64,000 nucleotides of DNA from Escherichia phage W143: sequence record MZ189262.1. One strand, given 5' to 3'. Below are positions 4,383 through 38,120 of the stretch, piece by piece. Positions within the stretch are counted from its first letter, which is position 1. Each line of letters begins with the position of its first letter. A model generated the notes under the pieces. It was given only the letters and a program-made list of their open reading frames with translations, had not been told where the DNA came from and searched no databases. The position numbers and the translations under genes were made by a program.

Positions 4383-4459
4383 TGGTCGAGGCAGAAGGAT
4401 TCTAACCTTCAACCAACGGATTAGAAATCCGTTGCTCTATACAATTGAGCTATGCCCCG
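4383..4459 (-). tRNA. tRNA-Arg (anticodon UCU), CCA encoded
   Basis: cloverleaf read by hand: acceptor CGGGGCA/TGCCTCG, anticodon loop TTTCTAA, T-arm GAAGG-TTAGAAT-CCTTC. Confidence 0.8.
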
Positions 4460-4462
4460 TAA

Positions 4463-5128
4463 TTAAAATTTCATTTTTCGACCTTTAAACCATCCTTCTG
4501 GAATTGGGTCAGTTTTCTTAATACGTTTAGAAACTTTTTCATCTAATGAATGAATCCACATCATACCGAATTGGGAATTCTTTTCACCTTGTTGGTGTTT
4601 ATTTCTGGCGTGAGATTCTTTCATTTTATTAATAGTTTCAGGAGTATGATGCTTATTTAAAAATCTGCTATTATTTAAAAATTTTTCCCTGTATTCAGGA
4701 GTTGACCACAAGCGTTTAAATATATTTGAACCATGTTTACGATATTTTTCTTGAAGTAAAATATCATTTTTAAAACGTGACTTAAACGATTTAGCTCCTT
4801 TTAAACTAGCGTCTTTCTTCTGATTTAGCATCTCAGGAATATTTAAATGGTCCCATCCACCTTCACCGCCAAGTTTTAAATTATACACATCTGGTCTATT
4901 TAAAAACTCTTCTGTGACAATATTTTTCTCGGCTTCAAGCATAGATTCTTTATCATCAAAATACTCTAATATTTCTTTAGAGAAATTTTCTATACCATAC
5001 TTGTCTTGGGCTCTTTTTAATAATTTACCAGAACCCATATATCCATCATCTAAATTTTCGGTAGAATGAGCGCCTATGTAGATTTTATTATTAATTTTAT
5101 TTGTTATTTTATAAATGTAATGGAACAT
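4463..5128 (-). CDS. segB: GIY-YIG homing endonuclease inside the tRNA cluster
   Basis: 221 aa; N-terminal GIY-YIG motif (HYIYKITNKINNKIYIGAHS); sits between tRNA-Ile and tRNA-Arg as T4 segB does. Confidence 0.85.
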   Translation of the reverse strand: MFHYIYKITNKINNKIYIGAHSTENLDDGYMGSGKLLKRAQDKYGIENFSKEILEYFDDKESMLEAEKNIVTEEFLNRPDVYNLKLGGEGGWDHLNIPEMLNQKKDASLKGAKSFKSRFKNDILLQEKYRKHGSNIFKRLWSTPEYREKFLNNSRFLNKHHTPETINKMKESHARNKHQQGEKNSQFGMMWIHSLDEKVSKRIKKTDPIPEGWFKGRKMKF

Positions 5129-5169
5129 AAATATCTCCTATTTCTAAGAGTATTTATGTTCTCAAAATA

Positions 5170-5241
5170 TGGCCCTGGGTGGAATTGAACCACCATCTGG
5201 CGATTATGAGTCGCTTGCTTGAACCTTCCAGCTACAGGGCC
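5170..5241 (-). tRNA. tRNA-Ile (anticodon CAU, presumably modified to read AUA)
   Basis: cloverleaf with anticodon loop CTCATAA; Ile rather than Met inferred from T4 cluster order. Confidence 0.7.
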
Positions 5242-5242
5242 T

Positions 5243-5318
5243 TGGTGCTGATTGACGGAATCGAACCGCCGACGTCCTCATTACAAGTGAGGTGCTCTAC
5301 CTACTGAGCTAAATCAGC
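5243..5318 (-). tRNA. tRNA-Thr (anticodon UGU), CCA encoded
   Basis: acceptor GCTGATT/AATCAGC, D-arm GCTC-AGTAGGTA-GAGC, anticodon loop CTTGTAA. Confidence 0.85.
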
Positions 5319-5325
5319 GAAATTA

Positions 5326-5412
5326 CGGAGGCGATAGGATTTGAACCTATGAGTCGCCGGAGCGACTGCCGGTTTTCAAGACCGGTGCATTAAACCACTC
5401 TGCCACGCCTCC
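5326..5412 (-). tRNA. tRNA-Ser (anticodon UGA), long variable arm
   Basis: 87 nt; acceptor GGAGGCG/CGCCTCC, anticodon loop CTTGAAA, extended variable arm. Confidence 0.85.
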
Positions 5413-5414
5413 AG

Positions 5415-5488
5415 TCTCCGCGGCAGGATTTGAACCTGCGACATTCTGCTCCCAAAGCAGACGCTCTACCAAACTGAGCTACACGGAG
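5415..5488 (-). tRNA. tRNA-Pro (anticodon UGG)
   Basis: acceptor CTCCGTG/CGCGGAG, anticodon loop TTTGGGA, T-arm GCAGG-TTCAAAT-CCTGC. Confidence 0.85.
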
Positions 5489-5498
5489 TAAATTAAAT

Positions 5499-5572
<74 letters not shown>

Positions 5573-5577
5573 AAATT

Positions 5578-5664
5578 TGGTGCGAGAAGTGGGACTCGAA
5601 CCCACAAGGAAATCATTCCGCAGCATTTTAAGTGCTGTGCCTTTACCAATTTGACCATTCTCGC
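5578..5664 (-). tRNA. tRNA-Leu (anticodon UAA), long variable arm, CCA encoded
   Basis: 87 nt; acceptor GCGAGAA/TTCTCGC, anticodon loop CTTAAAA. Confidence 0.85.
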
Positions 5665-5665
5665 G

Positions 5666-5738
5666 CTGGGAATAAAGGACTCGAACCTTTGCATCTAGCA
5701 GTCAAAGTGCTATGCCTTACCAACTTGGCTAATTCCCA
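5666..5738 (-). tRNA. tRNA-Gln (anticodon UUG)
   Basis: acceptor TGGGAAT/ATTCCCA, anticodon loop CTTTGAC, T-arm AAAGG-TTCGAGT-CCTTT. Confidence 0.85.
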
Positions 5739-5835
5739 ATTATTAACAAAGGCTCTCAAACAAGAACCCTTGATGATAGAGGGTATTAATCAGTGCGATA
5801 TGAGTTAATAATAACAAATAATTCTTAAAGCATAT

Positions 5836-6123
5836 TTACCATTTATGATGATACATATTTACGATGCATTCAAGACCCAAAGGATTCTTGAAAATATCAT
5901 ATTCAAGAGGACCTTTTTCTGTTTCAATAAAGAAATCAAAGTTAACTGTGTTAAATTTACGGTCTTCCTTCACTAATTTAACTTGAGAAGATGAACGGTC
6001 AATGTAAACCTTTTCAACTTCAAAACACGTTAAAATGCCATAATCATCAATCAAGGCTTTAGTTGCTTCTTGATCATATTTATATCCATTTTCAATGGAT
6101 GATACTTTAGCATAAAGAATCAT
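5836..6123 (-). CDS. hypothetical protein in the variable internal-protein locus
   Basis: 95 aa ORF directly downstream (minus strand) of the 60-aa ORF; no capsid-targeting N-terminus. Confidence 0.45.
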   Translation of the reverse strand: MILYAKVSSIENGYKYDQEATKALIDDYGILTCFEVEKVYIDRSSSQVKLVKEDRKFNTVNFDFFIETEKGPLEYDIFKNPLGLECIVNMYHHKW

Positions 6124-6125
6124 TA

Positions 6126-6308
6126 TTAACCTTTAGAAATTTTATCCATAACGATAGCAATTAAACCAATTAAAAATGCTACTACAAGTGAAAACACATT
6201 TTCTGCTGTAGTTAATAATCCGCATATAAATCCAACAAACATTGAAAAACTAAAAGCGGAAGCAGAAATTGCAATAGCAACATTTCGAATTAATTCACAA
6301 CGTTTCAT
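6126..6308 (-). CDS. small two-helix membrane protein
   Basis: 60 aa, two hydrophobic helices; GAGGAG SD and own early promoter. Confidence 0.45.
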   Translation of the reverse strand: MKRCELIRNVAIAISASAFSFSMFVGFICGLLTTAENVFSLVVAFLIGLIAIVMDKISKG

Positions 6309-6336
6309 TTTATTCTCCTCAGTAGTTGATAGGGTA

Positions 6337-6366
6337 ATAATATCACTACCCCATCTAAAAGTAAAC
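6337..6366 (-). promoter_or_regulatory. T4 early-type promoter (-35 GTTTAC, -10 TATTAT with TG extension)
   Basis: member of the repeated promoter cassette. Confidence 0.5.
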
Positions 6367-6376
6367 GGTTTATAAA

Positions 6377-6685
6377 CTATTTTATTCCGCGTGATGCAAT
6401 TGTATTCTGTCGTTTAGCACCAGTTTGTTTAAAGTCATGATTGTCGATTTGATCGGTACGAGCAACTCCGAATGATGATTTAATCTTAGCTTTAGATCCT
6501 TTAGTTATAGAAATAAACATCTCGGAAGCCCCTTTCTTAAAGTCCAAAGCAATTACTTCAACACCGTTCTTAGCAAGTGACTTCAGAATTGCCTCCGCGT
6601 ATTCATCATCAAGACTCGCCTGAGTATTAATAACGAATGTCTTTGGTGCAGCCGCTTCATTGATAAATTCTTTAAATGTTTTCAT
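6377..6685 (-). CDS. internal (head-packaged) protein, IPII-like, with capsid targeting sequence
   Basis: 102 aa; N-terminus MKTFKEFINEAA matches the T4 internal-protein CTS pattern (MKTYQEFIAE-type) with a gp21-type I-x-E cleavage site. Confidence 0.6.
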   Translation of the reverse strand: MKTFKEFINEAAAPKTFVINTQASLDDEYAEAILKSLAKNGVEVIALDFKKGASEMFISITKGSKAKIKSSFGVARTDQIDNHDFKQTGAKRQNTIASRGIK

Positions 6686-6715
6686 TTTATTTTCCTAATT
6701 AATTTTGATGAGATA

Positions 6716-6745
6716 ATAGTACCACAACCCTATTTAAAAGTAAAC
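6716..6745 (-). promoter_or_regulatory. T4 early-type promoter (-35 GTTTAC, 17-nt spacer, -10 TACTAT)
   Basis: member of the repeated promoter cassette. Confidence 0.5.
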
Positions 6746-7018
6746 TCATTTTAAATAAATTGCATATTTTTTATAACCCGCTGACTCATGACGAAGACCC
6801 TTATCATTAGCAAAACGCTCAATGTTGTTAATTTGATTCTGGTCAAGTTCAGAGATGTCAAACACGAAAAAGTTACGTTTGTTACCAACTGTTACATAGT
6901 CAGTTAAATCAATATCATATAGGTAATTGATGTCAGCAATCAAAGTCTTGACAGCTTTGCTAATTTTTACTTTTTCGTTAAAAGCAGCTTCATTGATAAA
7001 TTCTTTAAATGTTTTCAT
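6746..7018 (-). CDS. internal-protein-like gene with capsid targeting sequence; start placed at ATG 7018
   Basis: 90 aa from ATG; N-terminus MKTFKEFINEAA identical to the neighbouring ip gene, unrelated C-terminal body; GGAG SD. Confidence 0.55.
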   Translation of the reverse strand: MKTFKEFINEAAFNEKVKISKAVKTLIADINYLYDIDLTDYVTVGNKRNFFVFDISELDQNQINNIERFANDKGLRHESAGYKKYAIYLK

Positions 7019-7054
7019 TTTATTCTCCAATCACTCATTTGTTTTGATAGGGTA

Positions 7055-7083
7055 ATAGTATCACAACTAAAACCCCGTGTAAA
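7055..7083 (-). promoter_or_regulatory. T4 early-type promoter (-35 TTTACA, 17-nt spacer, TG-extended -10 TACTAT)
   Basis: member of the repeated promoter cassette. Confidence 0.5.
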
Positions 7084-7096
7084 TAACTTTGTGAAA

Positions 7097-7793
<697 letters not shown>

Positions 7794-7794
<1 letters not shown>

Positions 7795-8507
7795 TATAGT
7801 ACCTTTAGTGTATTTTTAATTTTAGAAAAAAGTTCTTCAAGAGAACCATCGTTTGTAATTACTAAATCGCCATCACGAATTGGCAATCCAGCTTCTGTAA
7901 TATGAGTATCATTGGATTTTTGACCAGGACGAACTACATGAATTACTGTAGCACCCATCGCCCTAGCCGCATCCATTTCATGATCTTGACGAGTATCAGG
8001 AACGATATAATAATCATAACCTGAGTTAAATTTATCAAGATAATCTAAAGCAAATAATTTTACCCAATACATGCGGTCGAAGTTATTAACAATCAAATCC
8101 GTACCTAGGGCTTGCATCAGACGACGGACTGACCATTGATCTTCAATATTATTTATAACGTCAGCAATCTTGTTAAATGCTACGAAATTAACTGCGTCAT
8201 CAAAAACAAACACGCCTTTAATTGGGCTTTTACTATTAAGATAGCAAAATGCTTGTTCCATAATCGTAATTACTTCTAATTTAGTCAGATTTAAATTAGT
8301 CTCGCGATCATAGTCAATTCCTTCAAACTCTTTACGAGTTAAACAAGGATAGTCAGTGTTTGCTGCAAATACGCCCCATGCATAAGCCAATGCATCTTTA
8401 ATAGGACCAGCAAGTTGATATTTAACTGCAGAATAATTATTCATAATAAAATCTGCAGTAGTATCTTTTCCACTACGCTTTACACCACTTAAAAAGATTA
8501 GTTTCAT
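7794..8507 (-). CDS. 1: deoxynucleoside monophosphate kinase
   Basis: 237 aa; N-terminus MKLIFLSGVKRSGKDT with P-loop; recognised as T4 gp1. Confidence 0.9.
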
Positions 8508-36217: not shown

Positions 36218-36642
36218 TGCTTCTGATCCCTGAAACTCATGAATTAGTTCTCGAGAATGTCGAAGCACTTATTCCTGAAGCACAGGGTCGCTTTGACGAA
36301 TTGTCTTCTGCTTTAAATAAAGACGATATAAATACAATTGTCGAGAATATGCTTGATGATGAAACTGATTTAGCAGTTGCATTAGCTTCTATTAATGAAA
36401 ATATGCCGTTAAATGAATTCATTGTTAAGCATGTTTCAGCTCGTGGTGAAATTACACGTACTAAAGACCGCAAAACACGCGAACGTAATGCATTTCAAAC
36501 CACTGGGCTGTCTAAAGCAAAACGTAGACAAATTGCTCGCAAAGCTACCAAAACGAAGATTGCCAATCCAGCAGGTCAATCTCGTGCTCAGCGTAAGCGT
36601 AAAAAAGCTCTTAAACGCCGTAAAGCATTAGGATTAAGCTAA
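36217..36642 (+). CDS. 68: prohead core protein gp68
   Basis: 141 aa with basic C-terminus. Confidence 0.85.
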
Positions 36643-37280
36643 TGAATGAACCCCAATTACTAATTGAAACTTGGGGTCAACCTGGCGAAATTATTGATGG
36701 TGTGCCAATGCTCGAATCCCACGATGGAAAAGACTTAGGTTTAAAACCGGGTTTATACATCGAAGGAATATTCATGCAAGCAGAAGTCGTCAATAGAAAT
36801 AAACGTCTTTATCCAAAACGCATATTAGAAAAAGCGGTAAAAGACTATATTAATGAGCAAGTTTTAACTAAACAAGCTCTCGGAGAATTAAATCATCCTC
36901 CACGCGCTAATGTTGACCCGATGCAAGCCGCTATCATTATAGAAGATATGTGGTGGAAAGGAAATGACGTATACGGACGAGCTCGTGTTATTGAAGGTGA
37001 CCACGGTCCTGGAGATAAATTAGCAGCTAATATTCGTGCCGGATGGATTCCAGGAGTTTCTTCTCGTGGATTAGGTTCATTGACTGACACAAATAAAGGT
37101 TATCGTATCGTAAACGAAGGATTCAAATTAACTGTAGGTGTTGATGCAGTATGGGGTCCAAGTGCTCCAGATGCATGGGTAACTCCTAAGGAAATTACCG
37201 AATCACAGACGGCGGAAGCCGATACAAGTGCCGATGACGCCTATATGGCTCTCGCAGAGGCCATGAAAAAAGCGTTATAA
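36642..37280 (+). CDS. 21: prohead core scaffold and maturation protease gp21
   Basis: 212 aa. Confidence 0.9.
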   Translation: MNEPQLLIETWGQPGEIIDGVPMLESHDGKDLGLKPGLYIEGIFMQAEVVNRNKRLYPKRILEKAVKDYINEQVLTKQALGELNHPPRANVDPMQAAIIIEDMWWKGNDVYGRARVIEGDHGPGDKLAANIRAGWIPGVSSRGLGSLTDTNKGYRIVNEGFKLTVGVDAVWGPSAPDAWVTPKEITESQTAEADTSADDAYMALAEAMKKAL

Positions 37281-37310: not shown

Positions 37311-38120
37311 ATGCTTAAAGAACAACTGATTGCTGAAGCGCAAAAAATTGATGCTTCCGTTGCTCTTGATAGTATTTTCGAATCAGTTAATATTTCTCCG
37401 GAAGCAAAAGAAACTTTCGGCACTGTATTCGAAGCTACCGTCAAGCAGCACGCCGTTAAATTAGCTGAATCTCATATCGCTAAAATTGCTGAAAAAGCAG
37501 AAGAAGAAGTAGAAAAAAATAAAGAAGAAGCCGAAGAAAAAGCTGAGAAGAAAATCGCTGAGCAAGCTTCTAAATTCATCGACCATCTTGCGAAAGAATG
37601 GCTCGCTGAAAATAAATTAGCAGTTGATAAAGGCATCAAAGCCGAACTGTTTGAATCCATGCTTGGTGGATTAAAAGAGCTCTTTGTTGAACACAACGTT
37701 GTTGTTCCAGAAGAATCAGTTGATGTTGTGGCTGAAATGGAAGAAGAGCTGCAAGAACATAAAGAAGAATCAGCTCGTCTGTTTGAAGAACTCAATATGC
37801 GCGACGCATATATCAATTATGTGCAGCGTGAAGTGGCATTGAGCGAAAGTACTAAAGATCTGACTGAGTCTCAAAAAGAAAAAGTCTCTGCTCTGGTCGA
37901 AGGTATGGATTATTCAGATGAATTCTCAAATAAATTGAGTGCCATCGTAGAAATGGTGAAGAAGTCTAATAAAGATGAAAGCACTATTACTGAGGGTATA
38001 AATACTCCTGATACTGAAGCAGCCGGACTGAATTTCGTCACTGAAGCTGTAGAAGATAAAACTGCACCTGGTGCAGAAGATATTGTAAGTGTATATGCGA
38101 AAGTCGCATCTCGTTTCTAA
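37311..38120 (+). CDS. 22: major prohead scaffolding core protein gp22
   Basis: 269 aa acidic coiled-coil protein. Confidence 0.9.
   Translation: MLKEQLIAEAQKIDASVALDSIFESVNISPEAKETFGTVFEATVKQHAVKLAESHIAKIAEKAEEEVEKNKEEAEEKAEKKIAEQASKFIDHLAKEWLAENKLAVDKGIKAELFESMLGGLKELFVEHNVVVPEESVDVVAEMEEELQEHKEESARLFEELNMRDAYINYVQREVALSESTKDLTESQKEKVSALVEGMDYSDEFSNKLSAIVEMVKKSNKDESTITEGINTPDTEAAGLNFVTEAVEDKTAPGAEDIVSVYAKVASRF

Follow-up and report, generated by a model that had tools for sequence, protein, structure and literature searches.

The stretch of Escherichia phage W143 analyzed here (MZ189262.1; 64,000 nucleotides, hereafter the window) comes from a Tequatrovirus, i.e. a T4-like coliphage. It carries at positions 6377-7018 of the minus strand, which is the coding strand for all genes in this part of the window, a two-cassette locus of the ipI type, in the order 57B/acb1 - ip9 - ip7 - trna.4 (Table 1). 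The two open reading frames (ORFs) at the center of this locus share their first 12 residues (MKTFKEFINEAA) and nothing more: the BLASTP alignment of Ip7 with Ip9 is confined to these 12 N-terminal residues (12/12), and the leader is again the sole part to align when the two family profiles are compared with hhalign. An earlier interpretation of this region, made from the letters only (the sequence-only reading), had proposed two ORFs at these positions with identical leaders and mutually dissimilar mature parts, and is borne out on each count. The repeat is also visible in the DNA, where the ribosome-binding site and the leader match over 44/46 nt (6650-6695 versus 6983-7028). A six-frame scan of the whole window found no leader-bearing ORF besides ip7 and ip9; since 54 ORFs in 36 related loci begin with this type of leader and only these two in the window do so, its sharing is not due to chance. 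In a mechanically generated ORF list the ip9 frame starts at a TTG codon (7030) upstream of the ATG at 7018. This TTG, however, is part of the ribosome-binding site (GGAG), which precedes the ATG by 8 nt, so that 6746-7018 is the sensible extent of the gene.

Table 1. Genes and sequence elements of the internal-protein locus, its flanks and the capsid machinery in the window. Length in amino acids (aa); pI, isoelectric point; CTS, capsid-targeting sequence.
Feature	Coordinates	Strand	Description
ip9, internal head protein Ip9	6746..7018	(-)	90-aa precursor; predicted mature protein 80 aa, pI 8.2
ip7, internal head protein Ip7	6377..6685	(-)	102-aa precursor; predicted mature protein 92 aa, pI 9.65
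Ip9 CTS	6989..7018	(-)	codons 1-10, MKTFKEFINE; predicted gp21 cleavage after Glu10
Ip7 CTS	6656..6685	(-)	codons 1-10, MKTFKEFINE
Upstream module of ip9	7019..7096	(-)	early-promoter-like TTTACA-17-TACTAT, hairpin over spacer/-10, GGAGAATAAA before the ATG; repeat family D1
Upstream module of ip7	6686..6745	(-)	same repeat family, GTTTAC...TACTAT...GGAAAATAAA
Upstream module of trna.4	6309..6376	(-)	third repeat copy; 12-bp hairpin, -16.1 kcal/mol
trna.4 homologue	6126..6308	(-)	60 aa, hydrophobic, no CTS; 100% identical to T4 trna.4; phrog_1692
trna.2 homologue	5836..6123	(-)	95 aa, conserved, no CTS; 97% identical to T4 trna.2
57B = Acb1, anti-CBASS cyclic-nucleotide phosphodiesterase	7097..7552	(-)	Pfam PF23474, E 2.6e-60; the other conserved flank
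Gene 21, prohead core serine protease	36642..37280	(+)	Pfam Peptidase_S77, E 1.5e-111; expected leader-removing enzyme
Gene 22, scaffolding core protein	37311..38120	(+)	Pfam T4_CASP, E 9e-90

Identity of the two proteins

Both genes have close counterparts in phages already described. The 102-aa protein is 99% identical to Ip7 of phage RB32, while the 90-aa protein is 96% identical to RB32 Ip9 and 93% identical to UniProt entry Q38376 ("Ip9, phage RB15"). Over their full lengths they match the families phrog_2667 (Ip7, E 2e-41) and phrog_7673 (Ip9, E 1e-54), both labeled 'internal head protein'. Over the 1358 nt that separate the tRNA cluster from the next gene, the window is 98.2-98.4% identical to Escherichia phages 132, IME340, SF2-1 and LYE-01; partial matches to this interval occur in 891 phage records, nearly all of them from T4-like enterobacterial phages. 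Judging from these similarities and from the leader, the two proteins are almost certainly the CTS internal proteins Ip9 and Ip7. Ip9 and Ip7 are already named T-even internal head proteins and not new ones; the names are attributed, by database annotations and citing papers, to Repoila et al. (1994, EMBO J 13:4181), and the existence of these proteins, their leader, their locus and its hypervariability have reportedly been documented since 1994; reviews have taken up the variability and logic of the locus again (PMC3012670). With the RB32 and RB15 matches, the candidate effectors of the sequence-only reading are named proteins and not uncharacterized newcomers. Nor do the mature bodies prove to be ordinary IPII or IPIII orthologues, being unrelated to IPII and IPIII. 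The finding is already known and adds no new kind of system.

Leader, cleavage site and capsid machinery

In experiments with T4 IPIII, capsid targeting was traced to leader residues 4 and 7 and processing to residues 8 and 10, and the protease gp21 is known to cut after the Glu of L/I-x-E (PMC9026906). Both window leaders carry F4, F7, I8 and E10, followed by Ala. They conform to the CTS pattern MKT(Y/F)(Q/K)EF(I/L)xE, with aromatics at positions 4 and 7, and end in the gp21 motif as I8-N9-E10 before the Ala. The proposal that the leader is a T-even CTS with an I-x-E cleavage motif is thus upheld by the agreement of residues 4, 7, 8 and 10 with the mapped determinants. With the cleavage point written as a slash, the leaders compare as follows: MKTFKEFTSTTTPVSTITE/A for T4 IPI, MKTYQEFIAE/A for T4 IPII and IPIII, MKTFKEFATKTTITE/S for RB32 Ip5 and MKTFKEFINE/A for Ip7 and Ip9 of the window. 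The mature proteins are predicted to begin with AAAPKTFVINTQ... (Ip7) and AAFNEK... (Ip9). The machinery that would act on these leaders is encoded by the phage itself: the window contains the gp21 protease and gp22, the scaffolding core that recruits CTS proteins (PMC9026906), as well as the portal protein gp20, gp67 and the capsid protein gp23. From the leader and these machinery genes we infer that Ip7 and Ip9 are packaged, cleaved and injected.

A hypervariable locus built from repeated cassettes

To place the window among its relatives, a census was made of 36 loci encoding 57B relatives in viral contigs, covering the region up to 2.2 kb downstream of 57B. The 54 leader-bearing ORFs of this census keep a constant leader, MK[TS][FY]xEF[ILM]xE, and sort by their mature parts into 17 clusters, none of which resembles another by BLASTP; the commonest body, with 13 of the 54, is that of Bas37_0260. 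The hypervariability claimed for the locus is therefore well founded, with 17 unrelated body families among 36 loci. Close relatives illustrate this directly, since the slot next to trna.4 and 57B holds ipI in T4, ip5-ip7 in T2, ip5-ip9-ip7 in RB32, ip5-bas37_0260 in Bas37 and ip9-ip7 in the window; both its position and its variable content are those of an ipI-type hypervariable locus.

The DNA around the cassettes is itself repetitive. Upstream of trna.4, ip7 and ip9 lie three copies of a repeat consisting of an early-promoter-like GTTTAC-17-TACTAT, a hairpin over the spacer and -10 element, and GGA(G/A)AATAAAATG; fold prediction gives a clear hairpin in two of the three copies. Repeat families D1 and D2 were both found at the locus, and alignment reveals the same upstream module before T4 ipI and RB32 ip5. 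In RB32 the ip5 cassette is flanked by the direct repeat TAATTTCACAAAGTTGTTTACAT, of which the window has one copy and no ip5. The leaders also seem to have exchanged sequence. Over codons 1-11 the DNA of window ip9 is identical to that of window ip7, and at the codons where RB32 ip9 differs (3, 4, 5, 8 and 9), its leader reading MKTYQEFISE where the window has MKTFKEFINE, the window matches ip7 throughout. This identity fits a patch conversion between the two leaders. The arrangement of repeats and cassettes agrees with an earlier published proposal of cassette shuffling at this locus and in PeSL elements (PMC4122927).

A further record is of interest with respect to the same genes. In Escherichia phage OLB35 (MH992122, marked UNVERIFIED; L049:1390-1734) the annotated 'ip7 protein' is a scrambled mosaic without leader, made of a trna.4-like start, the middle of Ip7 (residues ~29-72) and the C-terminus of Ip9 (residues 59-90). 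It is either a remnant of recombination at the locus or an assembly artifact.

Position of the locus and its flanks

The sequence-only reading correctly placed the two genes between the tRNA cluster with trna.4 and 57B, and erred in equating this position with that of T4 ipIII and ipII. In T4 the slot between trna.4 and 57B is filled by ipI, with ipII and ipIII some 8 kb distant, between denV and e; the locus in the window is therefore of the ipI type. Likewise, the two ORFs without CTS at 5836-6123 and 6126-6308 do exist, but as the conserved trna.2 and trna.4 they are not members of the variable cassette. In T4, RB32 and Bas37 a gene of about 136 aa, trna.3, lies between trna.2 and trna.4. 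It is absent from T2 and from the window (junction 6124-6126), so that the 'conserved' flank, too, varies by whole genes.

On the other side, 57B of T4 was shown to be Acb1, and its adjacency to ipI was remarked upon (PMC9117128). Since 57B is Acb1, which acts against the cyclic-oligonucleotide-based antiphage signaling system (CBASS), acb1, ip9 and ip7 form a small anti-defense cluster. RefSeq relatives still annotate 57B as 'RNA ligase' despite the strong Pfam match to Acb1 (2.6e-60). Two details of the tRNA cluster (4383-5738) may be added. A segB-like GIY-YIG homing endonuclease gene (221 aa, 4463-5128 on the minus strand) is inserted between tRNA-Arg and a block of seven tRNAs, the same placement as in T4 and RB32. 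At 5170-5241 ARAGORN reports a tRNA as Met (CAU); going by the RB32 annotation, it is the counterpart of the T4 tRNA-Ile whose CAU anticodon is modified.

Sequence families and predicted structures

Searches of Pfam and NCBIfam returned no significant family for Ip7, Ip9, trna.2 or trna.4, and profile searches of PDB sequences with Ip7 and Ip9 gave nothing below E 0.8. AlphaFold2 models of both proteins are of moderate quality, and the folds are generic small alpha/beta sandwiches. Ip9 (mean predicted local distance difference test score, pLDDT, 75.6) is modeled as an alpha-beta-beta-alpha-beta-beta sandwich. Ip7 (pLDDT 63.5 overall) has a beta-alpha-beta-beta core at residues 14-60 (pLDDT ~82); the closest matches of Ip7 by fold are RRM-type RNA-binding and ACT domains. 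Both models look ferredoxin-like, and remote homology between the two proteins was considered; it is not supported by the hhalign result, in which the leader is all that aligns. The Lys/Arg-rich tail of Ip7 (residues 78-102, HDFKQTGAKRQNTIASRGIK; 6380-6454 on the minus strand) is predicted to be disordered (pLDDT <50) and yet hardly varies within the family, even in members whose overall identity is as low as 68%, which suggests a binding segment. The mature bodies of Ip7 and Ip9 are unrelated to IPI*, IPII, IPIII, Ip5 and Bas37_0260, and neither protein is related in sequence or fold to any of the proven inhibitors among these (IPI*, IPII, IPIII, Bas37_0260).

Ip9-like bodies outside the T-even locus

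An exhaustive profile search with the Ip9 family against 1.84 billion representatives retrieved 14 proteins at E 0.001 or better, which have in common the motif ..IDL..YV..KRNF..D..L..N..NIER.AN..G.R.EP.G.KK.AI. Some of these relatives carry a CTS and occur in distant T4-like contexts, close to nrdB, rIIA, rIIB and td. Others are proteins of 75-86 aa without CTS, such as P0042, found in aquatic metagenome contigs full of small ORFs; no isolated phage gave a close match to the CTS-less relatives P0040 and P0042. In particular, a leaderless 77-aa member of the family is encoded in three aquatic metagenome contigs (L045:549-782, L046:1551-1784 and L047:549-782) that are phage-like, with small ORFs and an N6/N4 DNA methyltransferase; an Ip9 body thus exists apart from the T-even leader. 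The Ip9-like sequence is also found as an internal domain (residues 663-733; E 1.7e-10 to phrog_7673 and 3e-6 to the profile) of P0038, an 861-aa hypothetical protein (phrog_3867) encoded among early and replication genes of Escherichia phage vB_EcoM-ZQ1 (Ackermannviridae; L042:5392-8682). P0038 has matches in 314 phage records, mostly Ackermannviridae, of which just 36 reach a coverage of at least 80%, and the hypothetical Ackermannviridae proteins with an Ip9-like domain are 860-1100 aa in size. A Foldseek hit to a 535-aa viral protein of BFVD (30% identity, E 3e-6) is consistent with the occurrence of this domain in large proteins.

These similarities raise the tentative possibility, which we offer as a lead and not as a finding, that the Ip9 body might be a portable effector domain, older and more widespread than the T-even internal-protein system. 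If so, T-even phages would have fused a free-standing anti-host module to their leader, and the target of Ip9 would be something that hosts of widely differing phages share, and not an enzyme specific for DNA with glucosyl-hydroxymethylcytosine (glucosyl-hmC).

A proposed role in anti-restriction and its alternatives

The body sequences of Ip7 and Ip9 give no functional clue, and the case for a function therefore has to be made by analogy. Three different type IV restriction enzymes of the GmrSD kind are inhibited by Ip1, Ip2 and Ip3, one by each and without cross-protection (PMC12373910), and Bas37_0260, which is encoded in the same slot, inhibits McrBC (bioRxiv 10.1101/2025.11.20.689424); characterized internal proteins are thus inhibitors of type IV restriction enzymes in 4/4 cases. 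The presence of the anti-CBASS gene acb1 next door belongs to the same argument. The view of internal proteins as diverse effectors against restriction is already the textbook one (PMC3012670). The sequence-only reading of these genes as injected anti-defense candidates consequently stands as regards their nature, CTS internal proteins in a hypervariable T-even locus for which an effector role is plausible; the idea itself is not a new one.

We propose the following scheme, in which we place a confidence of roughly 0.6 for the whole. Each of ip9 and ip7 would be expressed from its own module of promoter-like sequence, hairpin and ribosome-binding site. The first 10 residues of each precursor (MKTFKEFINE) would serve as the capsid-targeting sequence and dock the protein on the gp22 scaffolding core of the prohead, after which gp21 would cleave behind Glu10 (I-N-E/A). 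The mature 80-aa Ip9 and 92-aa Ip7 would be retained inside the head together with the DNA, at probably tens to hundreds of copies, and enter the cell with the genome, ahead of any phage gene expression. There, each would most likely bind and block one host nuclease that attacks glucosyl-hmC DNA, namely a type IV restriction enzyme. The locus itself would have diversified by recombination within the repeated promoter, ribosome-binding site and leader DNA, through which whole cassettes are swapped, added or deleted. For the final functional step taken separately, i.e. that Ip7 and Ip9, once injected, inhibit type IV enzymes or similar first-line nucleases of subtypes beyond those tested, the analogy gives about an even chance.

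Several observations weigh against this scheme. The late-promoter consensus TATAAATA was not found directly upstream of ip7 or ip9. Its nearest occurrences on the coding strand lie inside gene 1 (8150-8157 on the minus strand, ~1.1 kb upstream) and inside trna.2 (6077-6084), and directly upstream of the two genes there are early-type promoter-like modules only. Expression at the time of prohead assembly would therefore have to come from read-through or from continued use of early-type promoters; no terminator-like sites are predicted in 5700-7700. Ip9 contains one further I-x-E, the I-S-E at residues 56-58, where gp21 could cut if the site were exposed. In the literature, our search found no paper reporting Ip7 or Ip9 in virions or as injected proteins, and full-text searches combining Ip7 or Ip9 with phage terms found no paper. 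Finally, a screen of ip4-10 on a GmrSD panel of 15 groups, of which the active members were used, revealed no new interaction (PMC12373910), and an apparent interaction between ip7 and CLS_011 was not reproducible (PMC12373910 Supplementary Fig. 9).

The lack of a reproducible match for ip4-10 in this panel is also what speaks for the most serious alternative, that Ip7 and Ip9 are injected as proposed and act on something other than a type IV enzyme, either another first-line defense or a step of host take-over involving RNA or nucleic-acid binding. The resemblance of the Ip7 fold to RRM-type RNA-binding and ACT domains and its conserved Lys/Arg-rich tail point the same way, as do the Ip9-like bodies that occur without leader in non-T4-like contigs and as a domain of large Ackermannviridae proteins; such bodies outside T4-like settings suggest a target not tied to glucosyl-hmC DNA. 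We regard this alternative as rather improbable, though it deserves to be kept in mind.

A mainly structural role, in which the proteins would neutralize DNA charge and aid packaging or ejection with no specific host target, seems unlikely. It would suit mature Ip7, with its pI of 9.65 and 12 Lys, and recalls the T4 internal proteins, which are basic, present at ~300 copies per head and DNA-binding at low salt, with lysines that touch DNA phosphates (PMC3012670, PMC9026906). However, a pI of 8.2 makes mature Ip9 no more than mildly basic, and Bas37_0260, a proven inhibitor, is acidic (pI 6.5). Moreover, the number and kinds of internal proteins vary from phage to phage, and generic counter-ions would not call for 17 unrelated folded bodies with strong conservation inside each family. 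Lastly, it is highly improbable that cassette shuffling has left one or both genes as decaying or non-packaged remnants. The scrambled trna.4/Ip7/Ip9 sequence in the unverified OLB35 record might be cited for this, but ip7 and ip9 of the window are full length, with leader, ribosome-binding site and promoter-like module intact, and share 96-99% identity with orthologues that many phages have kept.

If the anti-restriction role holds, its interest lies in its timing: being delivered together with the DNA, internal proteins are the earliest-acting counter-defense of T4-like phages. Their repertoire helps to set the host range of a phage and is thus relevant to the choice of phages for therapy. 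As all four characterized members target type IV restriction enzymes, what Ip7 and Ip9 target is a well-posed question that can be put to the test.

Comparison with known systems

With regard to the architecture of the locus, the window recalls the PeSL (promoter/stem-loop) cassettes of T4-like phages reportedly described by Arbiol et al. (2010), in that a repeated early-promoter-like sequence with a hairpin flanks small accessory genes; this likeness is one of general architecture, with a clear hairpin in only two of the three window copies. PeSL elements have been proposed to mediate modular shuffling, and the internal-protein locus was cited as an early example (PMC4122927).

Among individual proteins, T4 IPII and IPIII, inhibitors of GmrSD-ECOR21/BrxU and GmrSD-ECOR17, respectively (PMC12373910), share with Ip7 and Ip9 the 10-residue leader pattern and yield basic mature proteins, but are encoded between denV and e and have unrelated bodies. 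Bas37_0260 of phage KarlGJung (MZ501089) has its gene in this same locus beside trna.4 and carries the same kind of leader, whereas its 67-aa body is unrelated and acidic (pI 6.5). An identity of this protein with Ip7 or Ip9 was considered and is ruled out, since it is a different, 77-aa protein. T4 IPI (IPI*), the inhibitor of GmrSD from E. coli CT596, occupies the same slot between trna.4 and 57B, has a leader starting with MKTFKEF, is of similar size and possesses its own upstream module of the same repeat family. The counterparts proper are Ip7 and Ip9 of the T-even phages RB15, K3, RB32 and T2, which are the same proteins, with the order ip9-ip7 beside trna.4 in common. Within this group RB32 differs from the window by a third cassette, ip5, located between 57B and ip9, and by the presence of trna.3, whereas T2 has ip5 and ip7 and lacks ip9.

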